DNA of 64,000 nt, taken from a virus. The notes under the pieces are model-generated. The model ran no database searches. It worked only from the letters and a program-made list of their open reading frames with translations, and was not told the origin of the DNA. This document shows positions 1-31,961 of this stretch, one piece after another. Made by a program: the position numbers and the translations under genes. Location of the stretch: positions 1 through 64,000 of the IMG/VR virus record IMGVR_UViG_3300006001_000011. One strand, written 5' to 3'. Position 1 is the stretch's first letter; the number at the start of each line of letters is the position of its first letter.

Positions 1-13045
<13,045 letters not shown>

Positions 13046-13046
13046 C

Positions 13047-16000: not shown

Positions 16001-19000
16001 AAGGGTTAAAATTCCGATGGTAAAAACCGGCTTCTTTGCCAAGATGGCGAGTTATCGAAGAGACGTCAAAAACAAAGACAAATCCTCGAGAGGAGTCCAA
16101 AACCCGATTACTTCCTTCTTCGTTTCCGAACCGTGGAGAGTAATGACCGAAAACTTTTTCAGCAAACAGAGATACAAAAAACGCGGAGAAATAGTCAGCA
16201 ACAACTACGACTCTTCGGCAAAAGAGATAAAAGAACTTGCCAAAAATTATATGCTGACCAAAGGCATGAACGAACAAGAAGCGTTGAAAGCGGCAAGGAA
16301 AGAAGTAAATAAATTCTATTTCGGGGACATCGATTCTTCCATAAAGCAAATGCTTACCGCCGCCTCCGTGCACAGGACGAGACACATGTCAGAACCCATA
16401 ATCATGGCCATGTACAATACCTATGAAAATGTATTTGGCTCCAAGAAAGATTTAAAAACGGGACAAACTTCCGTCAATATAGAGAGAACCAAAGGAAAAG
16501 CAAAACTCGACTACTGGATACAAAAACACGTGTATAACATTTCCAATCCGCTTTGGGAAGACGGCATCACTCAACAGGCTCTCGGCACCGACGAGCTTAA
16601 AACTTTAAAAGCCATACAGAAAGCGTATTCGAGAATCGCAGACGTGGACAAGACCACAAATAAAAGAACCCGAAAATTGGTAAGCAAAAGCCATTTGAAA
16701 CGATATACTCAGCAAGAACGGGTAATCGCCAGAGAATACAAGCAAATCGTGGAAAACGGAATTACTCCCGGACAAGAAATGGAGCAAATTCAGGAAATAG
16801 ACGGCAAGGAGTTTTATTTCAAAGTATATAAAGATCCCGTAACCCATCAATTCAAATACAAAACAAACGTCAAAATGCTCAAGGAAAACGGGGTCGGGAT
16901 TCCGGCCATAGATTTTTCGGGAGAATTAAACAAAGAAGTAACCGACATAAACGACTCGCAGGACGTAACGGAAGAACAATTCCATACGGCACTGGGATAC
17001 TTCATAGAATTGAATTTGAACCATATGGGTTCTCCGATAACCATCAGTTCCGCCATGAACGGATTAATGGCTTACTGCATATACAGAGGACTCGCCCTCA
17101 ATCCGATTTCCGGAGCCAAGAACAGAGGAGAAGGGATATTGACGAATACGGCGGCGGACATGTCGGGAGAATACTGGACGCCGGGGAATTACATGCCCGC
17201 CAAAGATTTCATGGGATACTCAAATCTCATGAAAGTGAGAGAAAGATTTATAAACAAAAACAAGCCGTTGTCCAAAAAACGAGAACAGCTTCAAGTGTTT
17301 GAAAAACTGTTGGAACGCTTCGGAGGGCTCCATAAAAAATACGATACCATAGGAAGCGGAGTAGATACCTTCGACGACAAGGTGGCAAACGTTCTTTTTG
17401 ATTTGGCCATTAATCTTCCGGAAAGAAAAAATCAGGGAGAAGTGGTGCTGTGCCTCATGATGGACGAAATGATAGAAGTGCCCGACGGAAAAGGCGGCAC
17501 GACGAAAGTGCCTTTCTTTGACAAAGCGACGCAACAGTTTACTTTGTATCACATCAAAGACGGAGAGCTTAAACTGAAAGACGAATACGAAGGCAAGTTT
17601 GATTTGTACGGAGAGCAAATGAAAAATTTGCGTTTGAGAATGACCAACGTAGTGTCCAGAGTGCAGGGAAATTTTGCCAAACACGACGGATTGAAAGGAA
17701 AAGCGAGCATTTTGGGAAGAATGGGCCTGTTGTTCAAAACCTATTTGCCGGAACACATCAATTCGCGATATTCCGGATTTATGTCCGAGAACGAAAAAAC
17801 GATAAACGTAGATATTAATACAAGGGGGATAAAAAAGAAGGGGAGGTATGCGCAGATGTTGGAAAGCGACCCGATGACGTTTACAAGCCACATGTTGGTC
17901 GGCATAGGATTGTCTTCGGGATGGCTTCATACGGCGATAGCCATGTGCGGATTGGGGAGCGGAATGACGGGAATGGCGGCATACGGAGGAGCGGCGATAA
18001 TTTCTGCCGGCACTATTCCCATGGCCGCGGCGGGAGCGGCAGGAATATACATGCTTTACAAACGCTTCGCGGGAAGAGACAAAATAGTGACGGAAGGTCA
18101 CCAAATGCTGAAATTTATGTATTCTCTGGAACAAATGGTTACTCAGACATGGAATACTTATCCTCGCTTTCTTTCCGGTATTCTGGGAAAAAAGGTTACC
18201 AACGCGATAATGATAGACAGAAGTCTGGTAATGAACAAGGACAGACAACAGCTCATAAAAAACAAGGACGAGATTATGGCCATTAAAGCCTGCACGGCGG
18301 AATTAGCTTCAAAAATAACCATGTTTTTGACCATGATATTGGTGAACGCATTACTGAGACCCGGAGACGACGAAGAGGAAGACACTTTTAAAGCCAGAAT
18401 GTACAATCAGCTTACCAACAATTTGGTTCAGTTCGGAACTATGTCAGATCCCGCCACGTCCATAGTAGGCATTTACGACGACGTATGGGAAAATATGTTG
18501 GTAAAGACAATCGAAGACTCGGTAAAATGCGTAGCCTTTTTTATGGAGGGAGAATTTGAAAAATCGAGAGACAAGCTATTGGCTCTTTCGCCTATTCCGA
18601 AAAGCGTGCACAGTCCTTTTTCCTATGCCGTGGGACCTACTTGGAATTTGGCAGAAATGAGAGGAGAAGGAATAATGGGACAATACGGCTATCTAGGAAA
18701 GACCGCTCAGATATTCCAAGACGAAGGAGAAGGACAGTACAAGAAACTGAATACGAAAAAGAAAAAGGATTATCACGAACAGATGAAAGACAAGTTTGAA
18801 GGACTTACTTTCGACAGCGAATCGGTGAACAGAAGAATAAATATGGCTTACGACGCCAAGTTCTTTATTCAGAGAAAAGGAAAACTGGCGCAGTTGTCGC
18901 ATAAACAAATAAATCGTCTCAACACAATATTCGGAGAGAACCAAGTAAACAAAATAAAAGGATTGTCGGATTCCGAGCTGATTAACACGGAAGGGCTTAA

Positions 19001-19157
19001 AATATTGACGACCATGATAAAAGTCAGACAGTTGCAAGACTTGCCCGAAGACGAAAGGAAACAAGAAGCGAAAAAAATCATAAATAACACGATTCGCATA
19101 TTGAGGATCATGGCAAAGGATTTTCAAAAGAAAGACAGAGAAGAAATTTTTGATTAA
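13047..19157 (+). CDS. Giant (2036 aa) virion/ejected-type protein with an N-terminal PD-(D/E)XK (RecB/Cas4-like) nuclease signature and a C-terminal transmembrane cluster
   Basis: The ATG lies 1 nt after the TAA of the previous ORF. The motifs GTVDIINIDGNGRIEIIDLKTS plus QQSHY (D..D/E-x-K..QxxxY) lie at nt 13887-14012. The hydrophobic Gly/Ala-rich segments LVGIGLSSGWLHTAIAMCGLGSGMTGMAAYGGAAIISAGTIPMAAAGAAGIYML lie at nt about 17874-18066. Confidence 0.75.
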   Translation: MHCLIDSINEKIEKTSGAEKIYGGYRIPVARGRTKAKCDFLADRAADAANKGYEFLPKEEQPAIVDKSYLKEARIRVNANQRLEELHEVKNGKRSLEDWNEKHRGEGANRHYSPHSDPAVHAKAIKDQIGVKALTVNPAKSSEYIDPKTGETFRRVTSLGKEKHIADSGATARGNIVDLTLRDFVTDTNDRSQKNNAAQAIVTPRVMSVKDFETLFRQHVTDVEAKVTAEKGVLPPKFDSAAIKQIYDIFVNFSNQNNYLVSDIPTLWGNVGGETIAGTVDIINIDGNGRIEIIDLKTSVKDRVLDDTINFHESDVSQQSHYAELIRQRTGEIPIGSRILAIQMIEGTKGIITSAICTADKHKMSDARGGAYQVPYNSRILSFPSQGQTQADFDAKIKKIREENGAPLGQNFAELAQWKKEQLEENRRKQFTLKNVKGIEAEQKRALLAKERDILESQARYLFENKEFGQFTVAYLDLKSIQQALESGDQDKILMAGNKLRFYNDIHFSEVIVPKDGTAPQEEIELAKKNKETVDAINAMKTTLTKIFKDKNKEIVLAILEKDGIITDVLKEMNSREDIKRRAGKKEISAGKFEDFTVKDLLTAEGDIDVLSENILGIISSFKGDTVIPQYIYKVFENLLHENQEHPMDLMERMDKFNSEHKMSDQEKEIFFSKDEDGERDGFLINAFSEAWFGMTKAFGEKVRSFKNSFSGANRTARYKIAFDWILNNSEPINFFNLKAVYDEYGKDPKYSQYFSGYNEADAIAYEKKLEGVLGPQLHAIKNNIMATLQNYHSSASELTGTITNQSLASRNIWQFMDNINKKVYDPIDYQRENEHDIMARAIKPAGGLTQEMQNDLLEIKGKIEQYQLERKNNTTGLETPSMSSLKSEIQAKLTKFKGFGMLQEYADSVMDKLEKGQIEYTSAPRKIYFSDFENFPMVPKHDNKDHFSEEFETIKNDENKSELWKLYHEAGEYINNVYGMASSERVKIPMVKTGFFAKMASYRRDVKNKDKSSRGVQNPITSFFVSEPWRVMTENFFSKQRYKKRGEIVSNNYDSSAKEIKELAKNYMLTKGMNEQEALKAARKEVNKFYFGDIDSSIKQMLTAASVHRTRHMSEPIIMAMYNTYENVFGSKKDLKTGQTSVNIERTKGKAKLDYWIQKHVYNISNPLWEDGITQQALGTDELKTLKAIQKAYSRIADVDKTTNKRTRKLVSKSHLKRYTQQERVIAREYKQIVENGITPGQEMEQIQEIDGKEFYFKVYKDPVTHQFKYKTNVKMLKENGVGIPAIDFSGELNKEVTDINDSQDVTEEQFHTALGYFIELNLNHMGSPITISSAMNGLMAYCIYRGLALNPISGAKNRGEGILTNTAADMSGEYWTPGNYMPAKDFMGYSNLMKVRERFINKNKPLSKKREQLQVFEKLLERFGGLHKKYDTIGSGVDTFDDKVANVLFDLAINLPERKNQGEVVLCLMMDEMIEVPDGKGGTTKVPFFDKATQQFTLYHIKDGELKLKDEYEGKFDLYGEQMKNLRLRMTNVVSRVQGNFAKHDGLKGKASILGRMGLLFKTYLPEHINSRYSGFMSENEKTINVDINTRGIKKKGRYAQMLESDPMTFTSHMLVGIGLSSGWLHTAIAMCGLGSGMTGMAAYGGAAIISAGTIPMAAAGAAGIYMLYKRFAGRDKIVTEGHQMLKFMYSLEQMVTQTWNTYPRFLSGILGKKVTNAIMIDRSLVMNKDRQQLIKNKDEIMAIKACTAELASKITMFLTMILVNALLRPGDDEEEDTFKARMYNQLTNNLVQFGTMSDPATSIVGIYDDVWENMLVKTIEDSVKCVAFFMEGEFEKSRDKLLALSPIPKSVHSPFSYAVGPTWNLAEMRGEGIMGQYGYLGKTAQIFQDEGEGQYKKLNTKKKKDYHEQMKDKFEGLTFDSESVNRRINMAYDAKFFIQRKGKLAQLSHKQINRLNTIFGENQVNKIKGLSDSELINTEGLKILTTMIKVRQLQDLPEDERKQEAKKIINNTIRILRIMAKDFQKKDREEIFD

Positions 19158-20125: not shown

Positions 20126-20371
20126 TCAGGTATTGTAAGCGGTGATGTGAATTCCCGCAATACATCCTTCTTCTACGTCTTCGATGTTGTCGGAAGGAAC
20201 TAATTCTCCGTCATAATCTCCTTGCCCCCAAGAACCTTCTTCTTCTCGTTTTTTAAGGCTGTAAATCGCAAAATTATTGACGAGTTTATATCCCGATTCA
20301 CGGGCGGGCACTATTGCCAAAGCGTCCTGCGGACACCTCTTTAAAATGTTTATCAATTCTCCTATGGTCAT
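20126..20371 (-). CDS. Small protein, member 1 of the MT(I/V)xELIxxLKxYPxD paralog family
   Basis: The N-terminus MTIGELINILKRCPQDALAIV is shared with six other small ORFs in the window. Confidence 0.65.
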   Translation of the reverse strand: MTIGELINILKRCPQDALAIVPARESGYKLVNNFAIYSLKKREEEGSWGQGDYDGELVPSDNIEDVEEGCIAGIHITAYNT

Positions 20372-20373
20372 TT

Positions 20374-21096
20374 TTAAAATTGAATTATGGTATAATTTAG
20401 TCCTGCTCCTACTACAGGCGCGAAGCCTGCGGAGCTTATCCCGTAACCTATAAAAACCCCTAATCCGAGACGTCTTTGTTTCGGAACGGCCATTTGGTAA
20501 GAGCGTATTCCTTCAATCTCGGAATAGGGGTTTTTGTCCTTAATCTGGATATATGCAATTTGTCTTTTAAACCATCGATGAGAACCCGGCACGAGGAGAA
20601 CCTCGTACTCGTTCCTCACCTTTACATCGACTTTTACAGAGTCGGCGTTCATCAAGACATTTCCCCGTATCCATTTGTCTAGGTTAAAATCAGATTTATA
20701 TGCGGGGTACACAAAGACGCTGTCCCCTTTTCGGGAGACAGCGTTGGAAACCACAGACACACAATCTCTTCGTATTCGATAAGACGACCTCTGATTAATC
20801 AGAACCGCGCTTCCGCCGTATCTCAATTCGTTCTTGTATTTCTTGACCAATCCTTGAAGTTTTTTGATTTCTTCGTCTTTGGTCTTGAGCGCGATAAACG
20901 ACTTGGCGTTTTCCGTTACGAGCGAGTTCATTCTGTATATAAGCAGAGAGTCAGAGTCTCGTTTGACGAGCATGACGTCTTTCTTTGCTTCGACGGGATT
21001 CTCTTTTCCGCAATTTCGGAAAATGAAGAACACCGCCGCAAGGACAATGAAGAGGGACAAAAGTCCCCAAGAGCGATTTAAAATGTTTCGTATCAT
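20374..21096 (-). CDS. Membrane-anchored protein (N-terminal TM, hydrophobic Gly-rich C-terminus); possible lysis accessory
   Basis: The N-terminus is WGLLSLFIVLAAVFFIF. The C-terminus is LGLGVFIGYGISSAGFAPVVGAGL. It lies near the endolysin. Its function is inferred only from position. Confidence 0.55.
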   Translation of the reverse strand: MIRNILNRSWGLLSLFIVLAAVFFIFRNCGKENPVEAKKDVMLVKRDSDSLLIYRMNSLVTENAKSFIALKTKDEEIKKLQGLVKKYKNELRYGGSAVLINQRSSYRIRRDCVSVVSNAVSRKGDSVFVYPAYKSDFNLDKWIRGNVLMNADSVKVDVKVRNEYEVLLVPGSHRWFKRQIAYIQIKDKNPYSEIEGIRSYQMAVPKQRRLGLGVFIGYGISSAGFAPVVGAGLNYTIIQF

Positions 21097-21845: not shown

Positions 21846-22316
21846 TTAAAATTGTCCTGTGCTTCCGAACCCCTTGTCTCCTCTTCTGGTGGATTGAACA
21901 TGGCTTTCGTCTTCGTACTTTTCTATTTTTACTTCGGGTCTGATTATAGGCATGGGCACTAATTGGGCGATGCGTTCCCCTTTCTTTATCAGAATGGAAT
22001 AGAAGCTGTGATTGAAAAGAGTGATTTTTATCTCTCCTCTGTAATCTTCGTCCACCGTGCCGAAGGAGGCGATGATTCCTCTCGAAGTCAGCCCGCTTCT
22101 GGGTCTGACCTGAATTTCGCATCCTTCCATGTGTTTGATGTGCACCCCTGTTCCGAAAACGGTTTTGCCGTGTCCTTTGACGCTTACTTCTCCGTATTTT
22201 TCAAAACGGTCTCCTTCGTTGAAAGTACGAAAGGCTCTTATGTCCATTCCCGAAGCTCCGTCAGAACCGTAAGAGGGAGCTTCTGCCCCCTCTTCGATTA
22301 AAAATTCGACTTTCAT
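21846..22316 (-). CDS. dut: dUTP pyrophosphatase (trimeric dUTPase)
   Basis: The motifs ASGMDIRA, RPRSGLTSRGI, GTVDEDYRGEIKI and the C-terminal RGDKGFGSTG match the classical dUTPase motifs. Confidence 0.9.
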   Translation of the reverse strand: MKVEFLIEEGAEAPSYGSDGASGMDIRAFRTFNEGDRFEKYGEVSVKGHGKTVFGTGVHIKHMEGCEIQVRPRSGLTSRGIIASFGTVDEDYRGEIKITLFNHSFYSILIKKGERIAQLVPMPIIRPEVKIEKYEDESHVQSTRRGDKGFGSTGQF

Positions 22317-22585: not shown

Positions 22586-23215
22586 TTATTTCCATATTTT
22601 GTCTAAATCTTTGTCGAAGAATATTCTGTCTTCCGACTCGCAATTGAATATTTCTTCTTTCTTTTTCAAAGGCAGTTCCCATTCCGAGTTATACGCGGAA
22701 TTTTCGTTTGCCTTCTCTCCGAACTCTTCTTCTATCGTCTTTTTGAATTTGGTAAACGCTTCTCCCGTCTTGGAAAGAATGGAGTATTCCTCTTGTCTCT
22801 GTTTGCTCGAAAACAAATATTTCAACTGACGGGGCGTGTACATTTCGCTGTACTTGGACTGCAAAAATTTGTCGTAGGCGTCGTAATATTCTTCGGGGAT
22901 TTCTATGACCAGACAATGAAGGTAAGTGTTAATCATGTCCGAGTCGGGGCAATAGTCGCCTTTAAAGAAGGGCTGACCTCGCACATAGTCCATCAATGCT
23001 CTGAAAGCCGTCGCATTCTTCTTCTTGTCGAACACCGTATAGATGTTTCTTCCCGTCGTAATTCTCGCCTTGCTCAAAAGCTCGTCGTAAATGCCCAACG
23101 CCAACTTTGCCGCAGGATTGTACTTCTTGACAAATTCCGAACCGTGATCTCTTAGACACGGAGCGAGAAAACGCCAAGTTTTGTTCACATATATTCTGTT
23201 TCTCTGCAGTTTCAT
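22586..23215 (-). CDS. Hypothetical protein (start moved to the ATG overlapping the upstream stop)
   Basis: The track start at 23266 overlaps the upstream gene. The ATG at 23215 forms an ATGA with the stop at 23212. I recognise no motif. Confidence 0.6.
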   Translation of the reverse strand: MKLQRNRIYVNKTWRFLAPCLRDHGSEFVKKYNPAAKLALGIYDELLSKARITTGRNIYTVFDKKKNATAFRALMDYVRGQPFFKGDYCPDSDMINTYLHCLVIEIPEEYYDAYDKFLQSKYSEMYTPRQLKYLFSSKQRQEEYSILSKTGEAFTKFKKTIEEEFGEKANENSAYNSEWELPLKKKEEIFNCESEDRIFFDKDLDKIWK

Positions 23216-24288
23216 GGTTCTAACATAATAATGTCTCCTTTCGCCGTAAAAAGGTCTTCTTTCCATCCGGTAAGTTCGTAAAACATAAATTCTTTGAATA
23301 ATTTTTCATATCCTTTTTCTCCGTCGCCTCCGAATCTTCCCAGTTTAATCAGATTGGAAGAATATTGATACAATGCGGGATTGCCGGGATAGTTTACGGA
23401 TTCTACGATATTTATGAAAGCATACGAAAATACGATGTCTTCTCTTCCTCCCAGTTTTTTGAAAGGCTTCTCTATGACTTCTTCGACGGCTTTGAGATAC
23501 CATGCCGCCTGAATGTCGTATCTGAATCTCTTTACGGAAGAGGGGAAGTAAGAAACAGGTTCGCTCATGGTCTTCAAATCAAAGATATATACATTGATTT
23601 TCTTTTCGTCGGAAGTATCTATTATCATAATGTCCAACAATGCTTTGCACTCTTTGCCGTCCATCAAAAAATACAAAGGTTTTTGTTTGTACACTTCGAT
23701 GTTCGAAGAAGGAGAGGCGTCTCTGACGAAATAGTTCTTGGTTCTGGGGTGCGTAGTCAGAGACTCGACTACCTTATCGACCTTGTTCATGACGTCTCTC
23801 GTGATTATTTTCTTCCCTTCGGTCGCGAAAAGCTCTCTGAAATATTCTCGTCCTTTTTCCGTCAGTTTGTTTATTCTGGTTTCCGGCTTCCAGTTGGGTT
23901 GCCAATTAAATTGACACACGGTTTCTCCTATCTCGTTTGCGTATTCTTCCATATTTCTCTTTCCGGGAGGAGCGGTTTTTGCTTTTTCGTACACCGACTG
24001 CACCATTGTTTTTTCAATGTCGCTGAGGTCGATTTCCCTGTCGGAGATGTAATACGTTTTGTCGAAGTCCCCTTCTTCGTGAAGGAGAACGCAATCTACG
24101 ACAGAGCCTATCAGCATGGCTTCGGTTTCTTTTTGGTCTGTTTCGGAAGTCTCCTTCCTCACGTATTTGTCCATGCCTGCGAGCAGTTTTTTCAACGTGC
24201 TCTGGCTTATCGCGTCCGTGTCGAAATACTTTTGAATTTCTTCTTTCGTGCTGTGCGATTTATACCCTGATTTTTCCATTAGTCCCAT
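23212..24288 (-). CDS. PD-(D/E)XK family nuclease (RecB/YqaJ/Cas4-like exonuclease fold)
   Basis: The motifs are LIGSVVDCVLL, ALLDIMIID..(n)..VYIFDLKT and YDIQAAWYL (D..D/ExK..QxxxY). An alternative start at 24279 gives a TAATG junction. Confidence 0.7.
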   Translation of the reverse strand: MGLMEKSGYKSHSTKEEIQKYFDTDAISQSTLKKLLAGMDKYVRKETSETDQKETEAMLIGSVVDCVLLHEEGDFDKTYYISDREIDLSDIEKTMVQSVYEKAKTAPPGKRNMEEYANEIGETVCQFNWQPNWKPETRINKLTEKGREYFRELFATEGKKIITRDVMNKVDKVVESLTTHPRTKNYFVRDASPSSNIEVYKQKPLYFLMDGKECKALLDIMIIDTSDEKKINVYIFDLKTMSEPVSYFPSSVKRFRYDIQAAWYLKAVEEVIEKPFKKLGGREDIVFSYAFINIVESVNYPGNPALYQYSSNLIKLGRFGGDGEKGYEKLFKEFMFYELTGWKEDLFTAKGDIIMLEP

Positions 24289-24671
24289 TTTTCTATTTTG
24301 TTTAAAAGTTTCTTAAAATCTTCAAAAGTCATAAACACCAATTGGTCATACTCCGTTCTTCTTTTTTTTCCTTTCCCGTACATTTTGTGGAGTATGGCTA
24401 TCGTCGTTTTTTTCTGTTCCGCCGAACTTTTGGAGAACATCGTTTTCACCCTTTCTTTGGTGATTTGCAGGACAGACGGAGGTCGGAACTCCGTCTGCTT
24501 TCCCGCTTTTATCTGAACGTTGAACGGAAGGTTTATCAAATCGATTCCCGCGTCGTCGTGTTGTTTGCTTCCGTACCGCGAAGTGACGCAGTCCTCGAAA
24601 CCCATTTTTTTGAATTCCTTCGCGTACAGTCTTTCCGCGTTGTTTCCTTTCGTTCTGTTCGTATTGCCCAT
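24279..24671 (-). CDS. Small endonuclease candidate (Hjc/archaeal Holliday-junction-resolvase-like PD-(D/E)XK pattern)
   Basis: TKGNNAERLYAKEFKKMGF..S..DDAGIDLI..FNVQIKAG resembles G-x3-E-R...D...(E/Q)-x-K of Hjc-type resolvases. This is pattern-level evidence only. Confidence 0.45.
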   Translation of the reverse strand: MGNTNRTKGNNAERLYAKEFKKMGFEDCVTSRYGSKQHDDAGIDLINLPFNVQIKAGKQTEFRPPSVLQITKERVKTMFSKSSAEQKKTTIAILHKMYGKGKKRRTEYDQLVFMTFEDFKKLLNKIEKWD

Positions 24672-24673
24672 GT

Positions 24674-25387
24674 TTAATTTATTTGCGTTTCCAGTTTCAA
24701 ATCGTCGAGGTGAGTCAAAAATTTCTCCGCCGTTCTAAATTCGTTCATTTCCGTTTCTCTTGCCAGTTCTCTTTCGGGAAACAGCTCGCTTTCTATTTTT
24801 CGAGAAGGCAAATAAGCTACTTCCGCTCCGTACTTCTCGAAAATCGAAATATAAACAACTTTGAGGAACTTATGAAAAATTTTGTACAGCTCGTTTGAAA
24901 TCAACTCGTTGGACAGCCACAGTTTATAATTTTCCGGACTGTCCCTGATTCCGAACTCATACTCGTTTACGTTAGACATATTCGTCGTGGTGAGCATCAG
25001 AAGTATCTGGTCGGAAGCCGAAAGTATGCAACCCGGATATACGGATATTATAAATTCGTATTTGTTCACCGTGCTGTTATACCGGTAAGGACCCTTTCTT
25101 CCCGTCAAACTGTCGAATACGGATTCTTTCTTGTATCGAATCGAATACATCGGATACAGCAGTTTGAAATAAATTGTCAGTCCTCCTATTGTCTTGACGG
25201 GTTTGTCGTCAGAATTCGAATATTTGGAATATATTTCCGTGTACATGGGATGGTGCGTTCTCGGAAAGTCTCTTATGCTGTAAGTTCCCGCCGTCATAGG
25301 GTCATAACGAAGACCTGCCGGAACGGGACCGTGCAGACGATTTGTTCCCAACAGGTTTTCTACTATGCTTTTTTCAATTTCATTCAT
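24674..25387 (-). CDS. Hypothetical protein downstream of the E1-like gene (single Cys in VYPGCIL); start moved to an internal ATG
   Basis: The track ORF begins inside the ThiF-like gene. The ATG at 25387 (MNEIEKSIVENLL) lies 13 nt after the ThiF-like stop. Confidence 0.6.
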   Translation of the reverse strand: MNEIEKSIVENLLGTNRLHGPVPAGLRYDPMTAGTYSIRDFPRTHHPMYTEIYSKYSNSDDKPVKTIGGLTIYFKLLYPMYSIRYKKESVFDSLTGRKGPYRYNSTVNKYEFIISVYPGCILSASDQILLMLTTTNMSNVNEYEFGIRDSPENYKLWLSNELISNELYKIFHKFLKVVYISIFEKYGAEVAYLPSRKIESELFPERELARETEMNEFRTAEKFLTHLDDLKLETQIN

Positions 25388-25400
25388 TGCTTTTGAGGTT

Positions 25401-26195
25401 TTAGATAAACGGATTTTTTTCTTTTTCTCTTTCTGCTTTGAGGAATGCCAAATCTTCTTTTTCGGGAACGCATTGCGGACTCTCCGGCTCATTTTCCGGC
25501 TTTTCTTTCGGTTTCGGCTTTCTTTCCGTGCTCAAATTCATGGGCAGAAAATACTCATAGTAGAAAGGCACGTCTCTTACCGCGTCTCCTTCCGCAATAT
25601 TGGTCAGGTGGTTGGTGAAGAAACCGGTCATGAAGGCGGCAATCATGGCGGCGGTATGAGAAGTCTGCCTCATGGTGCAGGGAGCGTCTTCCGCCTCCGC
25701 GTCTGAAAACAAATATTTCTTTTCGTACTCTTCGGCGGTTTTCGGCGTTACGCAAAGTATCTGCATCTGTTCCATGAGAAGCCTTCCGTCTATGAGCAAC
25801 GCGCATGAGTTTTTGTCAATGCAATTTTTGCTCCATACGTTAAACATCATTCTGCGGGCTTCCATGTTGTCGAAAGCGGAAAAACAAAATATATGGCTCA
25901 TGGTGGCATTAGTCAATTTGCTTCCTATGGCATGGATGTCTTTCTCGCAAAATATGCTTATCATTTTGGAAAGGGCGGCTACTTTTCTCGTGCCTATGTC
26001 TTTTCGGGTAAAGAGCTGTCCTCCCAGATTGTGGGCTTCCACGTAATCGTCGTCATATACGATTGTTTTGAATCCCGCGCGGGAAAGGAAGAAGGCGAGC
26101 CAACTTCCTATTCCTCCCGCGCCTCCTATCATGGCGGCTATTTTGTTTTCCTTGTCGAACCAAGGAGCGTCTTTAAATCTTTCTGTCGTTTGCAT
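25401..26195 (-). CDS. ThiF/MoeB/E1-like adenylyltransferase family protein
   Basis: The Rossmann ATP-binding signature is IAAMIGGAGGIGSWLAFFLSRAGFKTIVYDDDYVEAHNLGGQLF..DIGTRKV, followed by FDNMEARR. This is the typical E1/ThiF layout. Confidence 0.8.
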   Translation of the reverse strand: MQTTERFKDAPWFDKENKIAAMIGGAGGIGSWLAFFLSRAGFKTIVYDDDYVEAHNLGGQLFTRKDIGTRKVAALSKMISIFCEKDIHAIGSKLTNATMSHIFCFSAFDNMEARRMMFNVWSKNCIDKNSCALLIDGRLLMEQMQILCVTPKTAEEYEKKYLFSDAEAEDAPCTMRQTSHTAAMIAAFMTGFFTNHLTNIAEGDAVRDVPFYYEYFLPMNLSTERKPKPKEKPENEPESPQCVPEKEDLAFLKAEREKEKNPFI

Positions 26196-26198
26196 CGT

Positions 26199-28007
26199 TT
26201 AAATTTTTAATGAATTAAATTCTTCCGTCATTTCCTCTTTGAAGGGATACTCGTTTTCTTCGACGTCGCCGAGAATGTCTATGCACATGTCTATTGCAAG
26301 ATTTCTGACTTCTTTTAAGTTAAGTTCGATTATGTCCTCTACGCCTGAGTCTTCAAAATGAAAACGAAACTCTTTGTCAAAGTTTTTCTTTATCCTTTCC
26401 ATTAAGACTTTGACGTCGTCGTCTATTATTCCGAACCCGTCGCTTTGAAGAAATCTGAACACCTGATATATGTTGTTCGCATTCGTCATGTGATCGTCTT
26501 TAAACAGGTCATACATAAAGTCTTCCGTCATTGACCGAAAATATCTTTCGGTTTCGTCGGAAAGTTCGCTTATCGTTTTGACCGTGGATTCGAAAAATCT
26601 CAAAGATTCGAGCTTCTTCGCGATTTTATAAGGCAAAGAATACGATTTTTGGTCTCTGCGCAACATTTTCGCGCAGGCTTTGAGCACCATATTTTTCTTT
26701 TCGTAATCGGTTGCCGGAAAACCGTTTTTCGTGATTTCCTTTTTCGAAAAATGCTCTTCAAAAAATTTCTCGAATATGTCTTCCGTGATTCTTATGTTAA
26801 GTCTGTTTTCAAAGAGATTAGGCGAGTTTTTATAGTTTTGCTCTATTCGTTTTAACAGACTTTTCAGCGAAAGATGCTTTCCGAAAGATTCTTGGTCTTG
26901 CAAAAGATCGACCAAAAAATCTTCGATAGCCATAGATTCCCCGTCATTCCCGGTCTTATTAGTCTTGGTCTCTTTTTTTTTTATCTTTTCGACTTCCTCT
27001 TTGTACAATACGAGGTATTTCTCATAGTCTTTCCCCGCTTTGTCGAACAGGTAATTCACCATTTCTTTGGACAGAGTGATGCCGTCGTGTTTCATCGGAG
27101 CCGGCTCTTCGTCGAACAGAGTGGGAGACGGTCTTTTCGATTCCCGTTCCAGTTGTTCCATCTGTTTTTCCAAGTTAATCGAAGAGTCCCATTCGTCGCC
27201 GTCGTGCCTTCTGAGCCAATGAGAATTGCTTGAAGGAGGAGAATAGGAATAGGAGTTGTTATTGGAATAGGAATGAGAAGGCTTCTTCATGATGTCTTCG
27301 ACGGAGTCCAAGAACCTTTTGTCTAAATTAGGAGTTACTTTTTCGGGCAGTTCTATTTTGCAGTCGTGCACGATGAGTTCTTCGCTAGTGAATATGAGGT
27401 TCTTTTCAAAGATGCGATACGGATTTCCGAACTCGTCGTTGGCGAAGAAATCCTCTTTTCCCGTCTTTTTCATTTTGGCTTTGAAGGCGACTTTGGCAAT
27501 CATGTCCATCGCGTTGTTCACGATGAAAGAAAGATAGAAATCATGCGCGGCGGAATTTTCTTTCAGCTCGTCGTTGTCCGTCCCGCTGAAAAACACGGAC
27601 ATTCTGTTATGGGAATGTATCAGCCCTATTTTCCAGTTGTCGTCCAACGCTTCGGGCACGGCTTCGAAATAGTCTATCATTTTGTCGTCTGCGCCTTGAT
27701 TATTCCTTTTGGGTTCGTTGAACTTGTACTCGGTGTAAGACTGAGTTCCTTTGTTCATGGGAATGATGTCTCGAAGGCATATCTCCATTTCGGAAGGATT
27801 TCGGATAGTTCCTTTTACGGAATAGAGCAGTATTCCCGACCATTCCACGTCGTATATCAGACGGCAGAGGTACTCTATTTTCTCAAGCACGGAAAGAGGC
27901 ACGGTTACTTTGATGAGTTCCCTTTGCTCCGGCAATGCGGTTTCGGTTTTGTTTCCCGCGAATTTGTTCATGTTCTTTTTTATTTTGTTTTTAAATCTTG
28001 CTTTCAT
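26199..28007 (-). CDS. JAB/MPN (JAMM) metalloprotease domain protein with a roughly 400 aa C-terminal extension
   Basis: The exact JAMM motif is present: E55 (DVEWSG) and HSHNRMSVFFSGTD = HxH-x7-S-x2-D (nt 27576-27617). An alternative start is at 27971 (MNKFAGNK). Confidence 0.8.
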   Translation of the reverse strand: MKARFKNKIKKNMNKFAGNKTETALPEQRELIKVTVPLSVLEKIEYLCRLIYDVEWSGILLYSVKGTIRNPSEMEICLRDIIPMNKGTQSYTEYKFNEPKRNNQGADDKMIDYFEAVPEALDDNWKIGLIHSHNRMSVFFSGTDNDELKENSAAHDFYLSFIVNNAMDMIAKVAFKAKMKKTGKEDFFANDEFGNPYRIFEKNLIFTSEELIVHDCKIELPEKVTPNLDKRFLDSVEDIMKKPSHSYSNNNSYSYSPPSSNSHWLRRHDGDEWDSSINLEKQMEQLERESKRPSPTLFDEEPAPMKHDGITLSKEMVNYLFDKAGKDYEKYLVLYKEEVEKIKKKETKTNKTGNDGESMAIEDFLVDLLQDQESFGKHLSLKSLLKRIEQNYKNSPNLFENRLNIRITEDIFEKFFEEHFSKKEITKNGFPATDYEKKNMVLKACAKMLRRDQKSYSLPYKIAKKLESLRFFESTVKTISELSDETERYFRSMTEDFMYDLFKDDHMTNANNIYQVFRFLQSDGFGIIDDDVKVLMERIKKNFDKEFRFHFEDSGVEDIIELNLKEVRNLAIDMCIDILGDVEENEYPFKEEMTEEFNSLKI

Positions 28008-29214
28008 TGCGTTTAATGATTCCTTTAAAAAATATGTTTTCTTCTATCCTTGCTTTCGCATAATCGAGGACTTCTTCTTTTATTTCAAAGTGAGTCAGTT
28101 CCAGTTCGTCTTTGTTTGAATCTGAAATAATGATGTTGAAATCGACTCTTTTGCCTCTGAACCAAAAGTGAATGTCTTTCTGTTTGACCAATTCCATTTT
28201 CTTTATGGGGTCGGAGAAATTTTGCGTGACGTTGGCAAACCACCGTCTCTTTCTTTCTCCGTCCAAAATGTACAGATTATGGTGACACAGCGAAAGGTTT
28301 TGCTTCATCAGCGTTTTGAGATAATCTTTGAACAAGTTGTCCGCCGACAGTCTGTAATGTCCGTCCTGAAAAACAAAATTCAGTTTCGGAGGAGGCGGGT
28401 TTCTTGCGATGATCTTCTGCATTTCCTCCCAGAAATAACCGTATGCCATAGTGGTGGAGTCTCCGTCGTGCAGTCCTTTCTTGGGAAGCAGTTTGTGCAT
28501 GGTCATGTGAGGCACTCCTTCCGTCGATTCCCATTCCACGTAGCTGTTCAAAGTATGAAAGAACAATTCCATGTAATCGTTGTCGGAGCCGCTTTCCAGA
28601 CGTTTGAGCATCCTGACCATTTCGGTATTTTCTCCCAGACAGAAATAAGGTTCGACCAAAAATATTTTGTCCGTGTCATATCCTCTTGCGGGGGAATGAG
28701 AATGAATATACGACATGGCGTATTCTTCGAAAGACACGGTGGCTCTGGTCGGTTTTATCGTATTCTGAAAATAGATGTTTCCGGTTTCTTTAAATCTCAT
28801 GTTCAAGAACACGTACATGTCTCTGATGAGGTGTTCGTCCATAAATTCGTTGGTGATTTTTATTTCGGGATAATGCACCGCGACGTACATGAAATAACAG
28901 TTTCCGTCTTTTCCGCTTGCCAGATAACTGTTTTCCTGAAAATAAAATTCCCAACGGTCTTTATACACTCCGTTGAGCACGTCTATGAGGTCGTCTACGG
29001 CTTCCGCAAAAATTTCGGCGTCTTCGAAAGGCACGGAATATATGTTTCCTTTCTTTGCCATATTGTAGATATATTCCGTTTTTCGAGTTTCCCCTTTGAC
29101 GTAATCTTCATACAATTTTTTATATCTTTCGCTTCCGTCTCTTAATGACTTGTGTAAATTCATTTGGGTTTCATTTAAAAAGAAGAAGCAAGGCTTTTGA
29201 CCCTGCTTCTTCAT
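27991..29214 (-). CDS. Hypothetical 407 aa protein between the Ubl-like ORFs and the JAB gene
   Basis: Long ORF in an operon context. It contains SYIHSHSPARGY-x-YFCLGEN. I cannot assign a domain. Confidence 0.65.
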   Translation of the reverse strand: MKKQGQKPCFFFLNETQMNLHKSLRDGSERYKKLYEDYVKGETRKTEYIYNMAKKGNIYSVPFEDAEIFAEAVDDLIDVLNGVYKDRWEFYFQENSYLASGKDGNCYFMYVAVHYPEIKITNEFMDEHLIRDMYVFLNMRFKETGNIYFQNTIKPTRATVSFEEYAMSYIHSHSPARGYDTDKIFLVEPYFCLGENTEMVRMLKRLESGSDNDYMELFFHTLNSYVEWESTEGVPHMTMHKLLPKKGLHDGDSTTMAYGYFWEEMQKIIARNPPPPKLNFVFQDGHYRLSADNLFKDYLKTLMKQNLSLCHHNLYILDGERKRRWFANVTQNFSDPIKKMELVKQKDIHFWFRGKRVDFNIIISDSNKDELELTHFEIKEEVLDYAKARIEENIFFKGIIKRNESKI

Positions 29215-29228
29215 GGTTTGACTGCTTC

Positions 29229-29885
29229 CTAGTTGCTTCCGTGAGCGTCGTACTCGGCTTTCAATTGGCGAAGTTCGGCTTCTTCCGGAGTTTCGTTGAA
29301 AGAGGATACGGACTCCGCTTCTTCCTTTTCGCGTTCTCTGTCACGTTCCGCTTCGCGTTCTGCTTGGCTTTGCGCTTCGCGTTCCGCGTCTTGTTCCGCT
29401 TCGTAGTCCTCGTCCTCAGCTTCTGCTTCCGCCGCTTCTAACGCGATGGTCGTCTCCAATTCAGCCATCTCTCTGGCTAACTTTTCGATTTCCGTCTCGC
29501 TTTCCGTTCTTGCCATGGCGCGGTTGCTTTCCTCTATTCCTTCCGCCGTGGCTATGCGAGCCGAGTTATGGAAAAATTCTCCCAAAAGGGAGAATAATTT
29601 TCCGTTAAAGCTCAGCACTTCTTTCGAGAAGTCCTCTTTTTTTTTTACCTCCGGGTCGAAAGCCCCCGATTTGGTTCTTTCGGGACGGAGGAATAACTTG
29701 AAGTCTCCTTCGGGAAGTCTGTCGCTGTCGTTGGTGAGCGTAGTCTTGTTGGTCGCCTCCGTAGGAAGCAAGTTGCTCAGGTCATAGTGCTGACCGACCT
29801 GTTCCTTGATTTCTCCCCAAGTGGTCGCGTCTGTTTCGATTACTTTTTTTCCTCCTATCGAGGAAAAACAAATGATTGTTCTCAT
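29229..29885 (-). CDS. Ubiquitin-like (beta-grasp pattern) N-terminal domain followed by a long acidic coiled-coil tail
   Basis: The first about 74 aa are MRTIICFSS..KKVIETDATTWGEIKEQVGQHY...LPEGDFKLFLRPERTKSG. About 145 aa of E/A/D-rich sequence follow. It is a paralog of the next ORF. Confidence 0.5.
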   Translation of the reverse strand: MRTIICFSSIGGKKVIETDATTWGEIKEQVGQHYDLSNLLPTEATNKTTLTNDSDRLPEGDFKLFLRPERTKSGAFDPEVKKKEDFSKEVLSFNGKLFSLLGEFFHNSARIATAEGIEESNRAMARTESETEIEKLAREMAELETTIALEAAEAEAEDEDYEAEQDAEREAQSQAEREAERDREREKEEAESVSSFNETPEEAELRQLKAEYDAHGSN

Positions 29886-29889
29886 TGTT

Positions 29890-30177
29890 TTAGATTTGGT
29901 TGTTTAGAATTAATTTTTGTTTCTGTTCTTCCGACAAAAGAGTAAATTTAATTGAGGGACGTCGGACAAAAAATGTCACGTTTCCTTTCGGAATAAGGGC
30001 TTCCGGATTTTCTCCGTATTTGTAAATAAAGACTTCTCCTTTATTCACGCCTGCTTCAAAATTCATAAAGCCTTTCCAATGTTCCGTGATGATTTTTTCG
30101 GCCTGTCCCCAAGTAGTGGCATCGGACATTACTTCATACATTCCTCTCGCGGAGGAATAAAACCTTATTTTTCTCAT
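29890..30177 (-). CDS. Small ubiquitin-like (beta-grasp pattern) protein, paralog of 29229..29885
   Basis: MRKIRFYSS..MYEVMSDATTWGQAEKIITEHW...IPKGNVTFFVRRPSIK aligns residue for residue with the neighbouring ORF. Confidence 0.5.
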   Translation of the reverse strand: MRKIRFYSSARGMYEVMSDATTWGQAEKIITEHWKGFMNFEAGVNKGEVFIYKYGENPEALIPKGNVTFFVRRPSIKFTLLSEEQKQKLILNNQI

Positions 30178-30193
30178 ATTATTCAGATTTAAT

Positions 30194-30898
30194 TTACCAC
30201 TCGATAATGCAAGATTTAGTCCTTTTCAATATCTCGTTTGCCTTGTAAAAATGTTTGCATCCCGAAAAGCCCGTTCTGGAAGAGGGATGCGCCGCCTCCA
30301 GAATGTAGTTAAAATCCGAGTTGGACGGTATCTCGAATAAATCCGCTTCGTTGTAAGCGTTGGCGTCTATTCTGTCTTTCAGATAGGGCTTGATCTGCTG
30401 AGCGTTTATTCCCCACAACATCCAGATGCAGGGGTTTTGGTCAGTAATGATTTTTACCGTCCGTCGTACAAAATACCGCCAATGGCTGAGATGGTTTATT
30501 TCGTAATTCATCTGACAGGTCAGCGAAAGGTTGAGCAAAAACACTCCTTGCGGAGGAAGATGTTCCAACGTATTCGCGTTTCTGCCCTGCTTCATGGGCA
30601 CGTTGTCAAGGAGCATTTCCTTGTTCACTATCCATGTCGCGGGAGGCACTTTTAAACCTTCTTTTATACCGTAAGCCAGTCCGTTGTTGCGATTGTGAAT
30701 AAAATAGGGCTGATTTCCGAAGATGACTGCCTTTATTTCTTTGGGCGACATCGAAAAAGGCTTGAAGAGAACCTCCTTTTCGGGGAGCATTCCTCTTATG
30801 TGCCATTCTTCAAATAATCGCGTCAAAGGGGCTTCGGTCAAAAAACCGAATAAAGGCTTCCAGTCCGGGTGAAACTGGTTTTGAAAGATTTGTTCCAT
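30194..30898 (-). CDS. Family-1 uracil-DNA glycosylase homolog with a non-canonical catalytic motif (GNQPY instead of GQDPY)
   Basis: VIFGNQPYF.., PPQGVFLLNLSLT, WMLWGINAQ and AAHPSSRTGFSGCKHFYKANEIL...IEW align with the UNG motifs VILGQDPYH, QGVLLLN..LTV, LLWG..AQ and HPSPLS..GFFGC.HFS..N..L..IDW. Confidence 0.85.
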   Translation of the reverse strand: MEQIFQNQFHPDWKPLFGFLTEAPLTRLFEEWHIRGMLPEKEVLFKPFSMSPKEIKAVIFGNQPYFIHNRNNGLAYGIKEGLKVPPATWIVNKEMLLDNVPMKQGRNANTLEHLPPQGVFLLNLSLTCQMNYEINHLSHWRYFVRRTVKIITDQNPCIWMLWGINAQQIKPYLKDRIDANAYNEADLFEIPSNSDFNYILEAAHPSSRTGFSGCKHFYKANEILKRTKSCIIEW

Positions 30899-30911: not shown

Positions 30912-31961
30912 TTAAAATTTAATTAGATTTTCATGGAGAAGATTTTTCAAAAAGTCGTTTCCCCTGTATCTTCTGAGGTCGGCAGGGTCTTTTTCCATGC
31001 CTATGGGGATATGGAAAGCACGCGCCTTGTTTGAAACGCATCCGTTTAAGAGTTCCTTTAGTTTTTCTGCCGCAAAGAGTCCGGCGTCGTCGTTGTCGAA
31101 AAAGACCACGATTTGTTCGAACCTTACGCACAGGTTTTTCAGGGTTTCTTTGGACGGGAACATTCCCTCATTTTGAAACCATACCGCATTAATTCCCAGA
31201 TTTCTCAACACTCTGCAATCCTTGTAGGACTTGGATATGACCAACTGCTCCCCGAAAGACGGGAGGGATTTGATTTCCCCCACGTCTTCCGCTTTGCAGG
31301 TGGCGAAGAACCTTCCTCTGCCTTTTGACAGCGGGTTGTAAATCTTCTTCCTGTCTTCGGGAAAATCCGAAAATGAATAACATATTTGCCATGGTTTGTA
31401 TATCCATGTGCCTCGTTTTGCGTTAATCATATGGGCTTCCTTGACCGGAAATACTTTGTCGTCCAGAAGGTTTTTGCGGCTTATTCCGTACTTGCTCCAG
31501 TACCTTTTGTCTCTCGCTTCATATTCTCTCGTTCTGGTGTGTATATACACTTTGGGTTTGGGAGCGAATTGAGTTTCGGAGAGAGAAGAGGAAGGAGGAA
31601 GGGGAATAAGCGAACCGTCTTTGTCCGCCATAAAATAACTATAGAGGAAGAGCAACGTCTCGCGAAAATTGTCAAAGTCAAACTTGAATTTTACGGCGTC
31701 GAAGCAATCGATGCTTGCGCCGGAACCAGTCTGAGAGTTTCCGAAATCGACGAAACGGAGTCTTCCTCTGTACTGTTCAAACCAACAGCCCGGATTCTTG
31801 TCTTTTCTGAAAGGAGAAATGACCTTTACTCCGGGCTGGGGTTTATAATTAAATGCCAATTCAAATATCTCTTCTTCTTGCACGTATTTTAATATTTCGC
31901 GCTTGTCTATTCCTCTTTCGAGGAATTTGACGCGGGCATCATATTGATAGCCTGATTCCAT
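30912..31961 (-). CDS. DnaG-like (TOPRIM) DNA primase
   Basis: The N-terminal segment is SPFRKDKNPGCWF. The TOPRIM acidic cluster is VVFFDNDDAGLFAAEKLKELL. It sits in the replication gene neighbourhood. Confidence 0.7.
   Translation of the reverse strand: MESGYQYDARVKFLERGIDKREILKYVQEEEIFELAFNYKPQPGVKVISPFRKDKNPGCWFEQYRGRLRFVDFGNSQTGSGASIDCFDAVKFKFDFDNFRETLLFLYSYFMADKDGSLIPLPPSSSLSETQFAPKPKVYIHTRTREYEARDKRYWSKYGISRKNLLDDKVFPVKEAHMINAKRGTWIYKPWQICYSFSDFPEDRKKIYNPLSKGRGRFFATCKAEDVGEIKSLPSFGEQLVISKSYKDCRVLRNLGINAVWFQNEGMFPSKETLKNLCVRFEQIVVFFDNDDAGLFAAEKLKELLNGCVSNKARAFHIPIGMEKDPADLRRYRGNDFLKNLLHENLIKF

Follow-up and report, generated by a model that had tools for sequence, protein, structure and literature searches.

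What would a bacteriophage gain from genes for activating a ubiquitin-like protein? The question is raised by a 64,000-nucleotide stretch of viral DNA (IMG/VR record IMGVR_UViG_3300006001_000011, positions 1 to 64,000; hereafter the window, whose positions serve as gene coordinates throughout), a fragment of a crAss-like phage genome identical in sequence to the 98-kb JGI metagenome contig 3300002405. A preliminary description of the window had pointed to six co-directional open reading frames (ORFs), encoding an E1/ThiF-like enzyme, a JAB/JAMM protease, two small ubiquitin-like proteins and two unassigned proteins of 407 and 237 residues, hereafter P400 and P250. All six were found where it had placed them, on the minus strand, and the JGI gene calls on the identical contig agree. 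Our reading, to which we give a probability of roughly 55%, is that the locus is a phage-encoded minimal activation system for a ubiquitin-like protein (Ubl), in which the Ubl would be processed by the JAMM protease, activated by the E1 and probably conjugated to proteins, the whole being expressed with the replication (middle) genes.

The larger of the two small ORFs, ORF B, encodes a 218-residue protein, Ubl-X, for which a profile search retrieved 188 metagenomic relatives. In an AlphaFold2 (AF2) model based on a 72-sequence multiple sequence alignment, residues 1–70 reach predicted local distance difference test (pLDDT) scores of 93–97 and form a β-β-α-β-β arrangement (strands 2–8, 12–18, 39–43 and 62–68; helix 23–31), with the elements in the same order as in ubiquitin and at almost equal residue numbers. 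Foldseek searches of the PDB return almost only ubiquitin, NEDD8, SUMO, ISG15, UBX and a Bacteroides fragilis ubiquitin-like protein, with target-normalised template modelling scores of 0.55–0.70 and root mean square deviations of 2.2–3.0 Å over about 74 columns; the top match is BAG1, a UBL plus a helical domain. Pfam and PDB searches at the sequence level gave no match for the Ubl. As modelled, the N-terminal domain of Ubl-X is a ubiquitin-fold β-grasp. The remainder of the chain, the X region, is acidic, is modelled as helices at residues 84–110, 118–196 and 200–216, and varies in length and sequence among relatives. In Kolpuevirus hominis cr126_1 (3332–4258), residues ~158–220, within X, are a ribosomal protein L7/L12 C-terminal domain (PF00542, E = 5.1e-12, above the cutoff), a formal likeness to the eukaryotic ubiquitin–ribosomal protein fusions.

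The boundary between Ubl and X is precise. The model loses confidence at the tail (pLDDT below 50 at residues 74–76), and in the alignment the Ubl domain of orthologues spans about 75–95 residues, with the variable extension after it. The domain terminates in [KR]SG in all phage orthologues, and nearly all (at least 70) of 75 IMG/VR orthologues end it in [TV]K[SA]G, with a variable next residue and from 0 to about 250 residues following, even though the E1 proteins of these environmental loci are only 42–58% identical to that of the window. The Gly is kept across the crAss001-like, FpV4-like and environmental clades, the residue before it is Ser or Ala, not Gly, and the extension diverges past it. 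Many standalone metagenomic Ubl ORFs of 79–92 residues stop at KSG plus 0–2 residues (KSG-KF, -IC, -IY, -K, -E), and in phage cr106_1 (NC_055871, 2734–3937) an HNH homing-endonuclease gene lies exactly at the Ubl/X junction, leaving X as an ORF of its own and the Ubl as a 92-residue ORF that ends in KSGKF. Metagenomic Ubl ORFs of 91–92 residues that likewise end two residues after KSG number in the dozens (for example P0004, P0005, P0008 and P0011), which suggests that this split of Ubl from X is recurrent. Judged by its sequence, a conserved Gly at the end of the fold followed by a variable remainder is the hallmark of a Ubl precursor whose processing exposes a glycine at the C terminus. The predicted site of JAMM cleavage and E1 adenylation lies after Gly74, with X as the predicted leaving group.

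The second small ORF, ORF A, had been described as a paralogue of ORF B, and BLASTP bears this out (E = 1e-7, 27% identity over 97 columns). A family hidden Markov model (HMM) built without ORF A matches it at E = 0.0012, and phmmer with ORF A as query finds the Ubl genes of other loci down to E = 2e-5. The ubiquitin-like character claimed for both small proteins is thus backed by AF2 and Foldseek for ORF B and by sequence paralogy for ORF A. ORF A, a divergent paralogue, has K-F-T in place of K-S-G and no terminal Gly, which would bar it from the activation proposed for Ubl-X; it is probably a non-activatable Ubl-like protein. A few related loci carry an ORF of about 110 residues directly upstream of the Ubl gene (L069 2166–2498, L072 2803–3144 and L070 2871–3185), with non-significant scores against the Ubl profile (E = 0.65–8.7); these are possibly degenerate ORF-A-like copies.

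The JAB protein has an N-terminal JAMM domain and a C-terminal helical extension. The motif reported for it in the preliminary description (E55 and HSHNRMSVFFSGTD) is present and conforms to the JAMM/MPN+ consensus E...HxH-x7-S-x2-D, and it is invariant in 59 diverse sequences: E43/E55, H119/H131, H121/H133, S129/S141 and D132/D144, in the numbering of the 590- and 602-residue forms, respectively. The Pfam Prok-JAB model matches 11 of 11 phage orthologues (best E = 1e-6); the window protein itself is sub-threshold (E = 0.0067, 16.7 bits against a cutoff of 25). In a PDB profile search, the natural solved structures matched are CSN5 and Pyrococcus furiosus JAMM1 only, the other matches being helical design constructs, which are also all that the C-terminal extension matched. 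Orthologues measure about 400 residues, and the window protein exceeds them by an insertion of about 200 (residues ~400–590), whose sole match, to HepT, is non-significant (E = 0.061).

The E1/ThiF adenylation signature attributed to the next gene (IGGAGGIGSWLAFFLSRAG, YDDDYVEAHNLGGQ and FDNMEAR) is present, and Pfam ThiF matches the product at E = 1.2e-17 (64 bits against a cutoff of 28). PDB profile matches are led by UBA5 (5e-14), followed by MccB, PaaA, Uba1, ThiF, MoeB, TcdA and Cap2. An hhalign comparison with Escherichia coli ThiF gives a probability of 97% over 104 columns that span the GxGxxG, the N..Q motif, the Lys and DNMxxR. Residues invariant or nearly so (76–78 of 78 distinct sequences) are R6, GxGG (with G25 and G27), D48, D50, N56, Q60, K71, D109-N-x-x-x-R114, D136-G-R138 and C173. 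The superfamily features kept in 77–78 of the 78 are the N-terminal Arg (R6), the nucleotide loop (G25, G27), the ribose-binding Asp (D48/D50), the phosphate-binding Lys (K71) and the Mg-binding Asp with the Arg of its motif (D109, R114). The protein is a bona fide E1-superfamily adenylation domain. The preliminary description had asked whether the active site is intact: nearly all catalytic residues are kept, the exception being the Arg of the NxxRQ motif, which is replaced in the whole family, so that the enzyme is probably active but not textbook. Cys173 is present in 76 of 78 sequences, the other two having gaps, and lies 64 residues past the Mg-Asp, a spacing that we take to be similar to that of ThiF, MoeB and UBA5; it is a candidate crossover-loop Cys. 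The crAss001-like E1s (such as ΦcrAss001 gp76, 383 residues) have poorly conserved N-terminal extensions of 100–180 residues that are absent from the window and FpV4 proteins, and the window E1 has a C-terminal tail of about 40 residues that is basic and rich in Pro and Lys.

These genes travel together. A pattern scan of IMG/VR for the E1 gave at least 533 loci, and gene content was examined in the best 80. The order Ubl–P400–JAB–E1 is found in 75 of these 80, the remaining loci lacking upstream genes only, as well as in all ten complete phage genomes that we inspected and in every complete locus on 15 contigs from metagenome-assembled genomes (MAGs); the neighbourhood is thus conserved in relatives. 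The longer block primase–(UDG)–Ubl–P400–JAB–E1–P250, where UDG stands for uracil-DNA glycosylase, occurs in ΦcrAss001 (gp79–gp75), Kolpuevirus, Flavobacterium phage FpV4 and two unclassified faecal phages, and in representatives of Kahnovirus, Lahndsivirus, Mahlunavirus and Mahstovirus. Alignment-based scans were required to see this, megablast of the region against GenBank phages and a single-protein scan of IMG/VR having given no match. Within GenBank phages, only Steigviridae/Asinivirinae and Fipvunavirus-like phages carry the E1, bar a distant copy without the context in Xanthomonas jumbo phages, and GenBank labels the genes only as 'thiamine biosynthesis protein', 'metalloprotease domain' or 'hypothetical'. 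The jumbo-phage copy, in PhiXhv-15 (6905–7588; 29% identity, Pfam E = 9e-21), lies between the gene for an 892-residue unknown protein and DNA topoisomerase genes; it has no neighbouring Ubl, JAB or P400 gene and is therefore unrelated in context, and PhiXhv-15 was rejected as a carrier of the module. The Ubl–P400–JAB–E1 block also lies on long contigs binned as bacterial: a 640-kb Bacilli MAG contig (JBMNLZ010000002.1), a 374-kb Puia sp. contig (DASYBV010000020.1) and a 120-kb Alistipes finegoldii contig. These could be integrated or episomal crAss-like elements, chimeric assemblies or cases of mis-binning.

The preliminary description took the genes to be one tightly packed cluster. They are co-directional, but they do not form an uninterrupted operon: the one sizeable intergenic gap of the module lies behind the Ubl-X gene (median 61 nt), and in the window it holds a strong terminator-like element, a GC-rich 13-bp hairpin with a U-tract (ΔG -21 kcal/mol, z = -3.2). 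Such an element recurs in seven other phages, its position and structure kept while the sequences are unrelated. Of 62 distinct loci, 50 (81%) have a hairpin followed by U5 behind the Ubl stop codon, compared with 0/63 after P400, 4/65 after JAB, 2/64 after E1 and 2% of random windows. The Ubl gene therefore either closes one transcription unit or precedes an attenuator, and 'one operon' is not strictly correct. This position of the terminator fits a stoichiometric modifier made in excess over its catalytic partners.

P400 belongs to a large orphan family (2768 clusters at 50% identity, E ≤ 1e-3), for which Pfam, PDB profile searches and Foldseek against the PDB gave no match of any kind. In an alignment of 150 representatives less than 50% identical to one another, S172, H173, C192, G194, L206, E229, S230, G233 and P235 are invariant and Y169 and H171 nearly so (numbering of the 407-residue ORF), a pattern that points to an enzyme or a metal site. 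The YxHSH motif is followed 19–21 residues on by the invariant Cys, which precedes a helix. The AF2 model has a mean pLDDT of 65 and a better-defined core (residues 105–245 at 80–94) with the order helix, four strands, a loop bearing HSH and the Cys, and two helices; as modelled, this order is superficially UBC/E2-like. Foldseek searches of BFVD found only uncharacterised crAss-like orthologues. We regard P400 as a candidate new Cys/His transferase or thiol peptidase, or an acceptor. Other identities were considered and dropped: a degenerate JAB/MPN partner, prompted by the common HSH (hhalign probability 0.5% over 10 columns), and an HUH endonuclease or deaminase-like zinc enzyme, suggested by the motifs and unsupported by Foldseek or HMM searches. 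A homologue of 710 residues on a Flavobacteriales MAG contig (4600–6729) carries an N-terminal extension of about 380 residues that has no Pfam match.

P250 is placed in the module by synteny. A gene occupies the position directly after E1 in all annotated relatives, but its products have a mean column identity of 10% and no invariant column, and the HMM recovers P250 in only 17 of the 80 IMG/VR loci. The single Cys of the 237-residue protein (VYPGCIL), previously singled out, is not conserved in orthologues, and P250 was accordingly rejected as an E2 or a key-Cys substrate. A PDB match to an ABC-transporter substrate-binding protein (E = 3e-4) covers about 55 residues only and was judged not meaningful. 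P250 may be an adaptor or specificity factor.

Taken together, the parts suggest the following scheme. The 218-residue product would be a precursor made up of the N-terminal β-grasp Ubl and the variable helical X region. The JAMM protease would cut past the invariant Gly of ...TKSG, freeing a Ubl with a C-terminal glycine, and may later reverse conjugates too. The single-domain UBA5/ThiF-type E1 would then adenylate this glycine and probably form a thioester on Cys173; it is the co-conservation of Ubl and E1 that points to adenylation and transfer of the Ubl C terminus by its cognate enzyme. The Ubl could be passed to protein targets directly from the E1, as with archaeal SAMP or Thermus TtuB, or by way of P400, which with Cys192, HSH171–173 and ES229–230 is the best candidate for a new transferase, or else a second peptidase. 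P250 may provide target specificity. The terminator after the Ubl gene would yield more Ubl mRNA than enzyme mRNA. In ΦcrAss001, replication-module genes are transcribed 10–30 min post infection (PMC8375218), and from its position in the replication module the set is expected to be expressed as middle genes. More tentatively, we consider it possible that phages of the ΦcrAss001/FpV4 lineage run a conjugation pathway of their own, with a JAMM-matured Ser-Gly Ubl, a stripped-down E1 and P400 in the place of E2 and E3, aimed at host or phage targets.

Several observations weigh against this scheme. The Arg of the N-x-x-R-Q motif contacts ATP phosphates, and Gly59 stands in its place in 78 of 78 E1s (NLGGQ or NMSGQ, compared with NLQRQ in ThiF and NMNRL in UBA5), so the chemistry of the enzyme could differ; the family-specific invariant Arg138 of the DGR motif might compensate for the loss. 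The C-terminal half of the E1 does not align to solved E1s, and Cys173 is placed in the crossover loop from its spacing only. The Ubl tail is Ser-Gly, not Gly-Gly, and the terminator means that the Ubl gene may be transcribed in a separate unit from the enzyme genes. An E2-like component had been sought among the two unassigned proteins, and neither could be shown to be one. P400 has no UBC or Prok-E2 match in Pfam (11 members) or among PDB profiles (11 and 150 sequences), its moderate-confidence model finds nothing better than E = 0.45 in the PDB by Foldseek, and hhalign against three canonical UBC sequences gives a probability of 0.07%. All tests of E2 relatedness being negative, P400 is not called an E2. 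None was found among 18 further window proteins either, leaving the module with no E2-like protein in P400, P250 or the window neighbours.

A different use of the same parts is a sulfur-carrier pathway, in which the processed and adenylated Ubl would be converted to a thiocarboxylate, as in ThiS, MoaD, CysO, QbsE and TtuB, and P400 would insert the donated sulfur into a nucleotide, tRNA, DNA base or cofactor. Such pathways classically combine an E1 and a JAMM protein with a small β-grasp protein extended at its C terminus (CysO/Mec+, QbsCDE; PMC1779556), the module sits among nucleotide-metabolism genes (UDG and dUTPase in the window, ribonucleotide reductase in relatives), the invariant Cys, His and Glu of P400 could bind a metal or a persulfide, and in NCBIfam the E1 scores best against ThiS adenylyltransferase models (1.2e-16 and 2.2e-12). 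However, all ThiF/MoeB models score far under their cutoffs (61 versus 159 bits), the tail is Ser-Gly rather than the near-universal Gly-Gly, Ubl extensions of 100–250 residues are unusual, and P400, with its one invariant Cys, has no likeness to a known sulfurtransferase. A scan of 34 window proteins found no rhodanese, cysteine desulfurase (NifS), PP-loop ATPase, ThiG or MoaE. P400 could be an acceptor enzyme of an unknown kind, so a sulfur-carrier function is conceivable even though the set does not fit the known ThiS/MoaD pathways; we consider it unlikely. The uncleaved alternative, in which the β-grasp is a permanent UBL interaction domain, as in Rad23 and BAG1, and the E1 and JAMM proteins act on other substrates (a peptide, tRNA or small molecule, as with MccB, PaaA and TcdA), strikes us as more doubtful still. 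It would account for BAG1 as the top Foldseek match, for MccB, PaaA and TcdA among the best solved relatives of an E1 that has lost the canonical Arg, for the terminator that parts the Ubl gene from the enzyme genes, and for the start of X, which is semi-conserved (S/D-[YR]-K-E-...-I-K) in many clades. It does not explain why an invariant Gly falls exactly at the end of the fold, on a disordered tail, why standalone Ubl ORFs stop 0–2 residues past it and the HNH gene splits the Ubl from X at that very point, or why the Ubl strictly co-occurs with E1 and JAMM (75/80 loci).

Counter-defence is comparably improbable in our estimate. Here the JAMM protein would strip conjugates made by host Cap2- or Bil-type systems, for example from cGAS-like enzymes or tagged tail proteins, while the phage Ubl and E1 served as decoys or competitors. 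Phage proteins are among the known targets of host Ubl systems (PMC11601596), the rapid divergence of P250 hints at an arms race, and the E1 matches Cap2 models, both in PADLOC (E1–E2 proteins of the cyclic oligonucleotide-based antiphage signalling system, CBASS; best 1.3e-10) and in NCBIfam (6A-MBL cap2_3, 3.5e-10). These matches are nevertheless limited to 60–90 residues of the generic nucleotide-binding (Rossmann) segment, and the JAB protein matches no PADLOC model, Cap3 and BilC included, so a captured deconjugase, as raised earlier for this locus, is not favoured. A simple deconjugase would have no need of P400 or of its own strictly co-conserved Ubl with a processing site, and the module lies beside replication genes in every member of a large clade, not sporadically like most anti-defence genes. 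The reading of the locus as a Ubl activation system remains the one that we prefer.

The feature coordinates are collected in Table 1. The module is flanked by primase and UDG genes on one side and by recombination genes on the other, all on the minus strand. With the quoted motifs all present, the earlier observation stands, apart from minor changes in gene starts and in one spacer. The P400 ORF is real but most likely starts at Met18, the JAB gene is likewise present with a corrected start, and the spacer in HSHSPA-x16-YFCLGE is 13 residues, not 16. Elsewhere in the window, two giant ORFs (4286 and 2036 residues; 185–19157, plus strand) are of the type of the crAss virion-packaged RNA polymerase/cargo proteins, a single tRNA-Arg(TCG) at 20365–20458 on the minus strand overlaps the 3' end of a 240-residue DUF6808 ORF, and the coding strand and AT skew change side at about 19–20 kb and about 50 kb.

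Table 1. Features of the Ubl locus and its flanks, listed in the direction of transcription (aa, amino acids).
Feature	Position	Strand	Remarks
Toprim primase	30912-31961	minus	349 aa; first in transcription order
UDG-like protein	30194-30898	minus	234 aa
ORF A, Ubl paralogue	29890-30177	minus	95 aa
ORF B, Ubl-X precursor	29229-29885	minus	218 aa
Ubl domain, residues 1-74 of Ubl-X	29664-29885	minus	modelled β-grasp plus tail ...RPERTKSG to Gly74
X region, residues 75-218 of Ubl-X	29229-29663	minus	acidic helical extension
Terminator-like hairpin and U-tract	29172-29212	minus	13-bp stem, 5-nt loop; between Ubl-X and P400
P400	27991-29163 (ORF reaches 29214)	minus	390 aa from Met18; 407-aa ORF
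JAB/JAMM protein	26199-27971 (ORF to 28007)	minus	590 aa; 602-aa ORF
ThiF/MoeB/UBA5-like E1	25401-26195	minus	264 aa, single domain, basic C-terminal tail
P250	24674-25387	minus	237 aa, fast-evolving
RusA/Mrr-like nuclease	24279-24671	minus	130 aa
PD-(D/E)XK exonuclease	23212-24288	minus	358 aa
dUTPase	21846-22316	minus	156 aa

The earlier claim that this set belongs to no described system agrees with the literature: we found no description of a crAss-phage ThiF/JAB module, and a 2023 review of the Crassvirales mentions neither gene. Systems of Ubl, E1 and JAMM proteins are already known from archaea and bacteria; this variant is phage-borne, lacks an E2 and has P400 as a new partner family. 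Where Ubl conjugation has been characterised in prokaryotes to date, it serves the cell, in antiphage defence among other roles (CBASS Cap2/Cap3, Bil and Bub), and the only phage case predicted before is the E1-less pair of TAPI and TAPK in tail assembly. Here a complete-looking activation set forms part of the replication module conserved in a very large clade of phages, which spans ΦcrAss001-like gut phages and cultured phages of fish pathogens. If it does conjugate proteins, the known direction would be reversed, the phage tagging proteins instead of being tagged, and this would be the first Ubl conjugation system encoded by a virus of bacteria and would amount to a new way of taking over the host or controlling replication. 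P400 would then be a new enzyme family in the ubiquitin toolkit, and four or five conserved 'hypothetical' crAss genes (ΦcrAss001 gp75–gp79) would gain a function. The clade includes phages in culture, ΦcrAss001 on Bacteroides intestinalis and FpV4 on Flavobacterium psychrophilum, in which the idea can be tested directly.

How, then, does the phage set relate to the systems already described? It belongs to none of Bil, type II CBASS, Bub, PRTRC or the ThiS/MoaD pathways, and it shares parts with several of them. Bil (BilABCD, with an ISG15-like modifier) and type II CBASS conjugate through the C-terminal carboxylate. Both combine an E1-like adenylation domain with a JAMM protein (Cap2 and Cap3 in CBASS), and Bil has a dedicated Ubl, as does the phage. 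Bil, however, has a canonical E2 and a three-part E1 (IAD-AAD-CYS) (PMC11601596), and Cap2 of CBASS is an E2–E1 fusion acting on a CD-NTase, whereas the phage E1 is a single domain of 264 residues, accompanied by neither an E2 nor a CD-NTase and by a JAB protein without a PADLOC match. The PRTRC cassette resembles the phage set as a mobile-element-borne group of a ThiF-family E1, a JAB-like protein A and a small Ubl-like protein, and there are weak matches of the phage E1 to TIGR03736 (35.4 versus 144.75 bits) and of the JAB protein to TIGR03735 (16 versus 101.8 bits). It differs in that the phage set has no ParB and no homologues of PRTRC B, E or F, and P400 is unrelated to it.

A likeness in domain layout comes from the lambdoid tail modules of lambda and T1, where an E1-less pair of JAB and Ubl was predicted earlier (PMC1779556). 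TAPI is a phage-encoded β-grasp Ubl with a conserved C-terminal Gly and a fused C-terminal domain, release of which is predicted to fall to the neighbouring TAPK (JAB plus NlpC/P60), and the second, thiol peptidase of TAPK offers a possible analogy for P400. In contrast to the phage set described here, that pair lacks an E1 and serves tail morphogenesis, not replication, and we detected no sequence relationship between the two. In enzymatic make-up the archaeal SAMP/UbaA/HvJAMM1 and the Thermus TtuB/TtuC systems resemble the phage set, with a Ubl, a single-domain E1, a JAMM protein and no recognisable E2 or E3. The JAMM protein of SAMP-type systems both matures and removes the modifier, and P. 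furiosus JAMM1 is among the few solved matches of the phage JAB profile. SAMPs and TtuB have a Gly-Gly terminus, where the phage Ubl has Ser-Gly, and also serve as sulfur carriers; the phage E1 scores only 23.5 bits with the NCBIfam SAMP-E1 model against a cutoff of 450, and P400 has no counterpart there.

The type I Bub systems (6E.1/DUF6527) depart from the phage set in several ways (PMC11601596). They rely on Ubl–E2 and JAB–E1 fusions, where the phage has four separate proteins and an X region that is helical and not E2-like; they include a DUF6527 protease, none of which was found among the phage proteins in Pfam scans; their E1 has no catalytic Cys, whereas the phage E1 has the invariant Cys173; and they are bacterial and associated with defence, whereas the phage set lies in the replication region of a virulent-type phage. 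In type I Bub, cleavage of the Ubl fusion protein by the JAB domain releases a Ubl that is then activated by a UBA5-like E1 (PMC11601596). As in the phage set, the Ubl is made as a fusion precursor with release by JAB/JAMM at the C-terminal Gly, the E1 is a minimal, homodimer-type UBA5/ThiF-like enzyme, and an additional, previously unknown enzyme family stands beside the core. By analogy, type I Bub is the closest experimentally characterised counterpart of the cleavage and activation steps proposed here for the phage Ubl.

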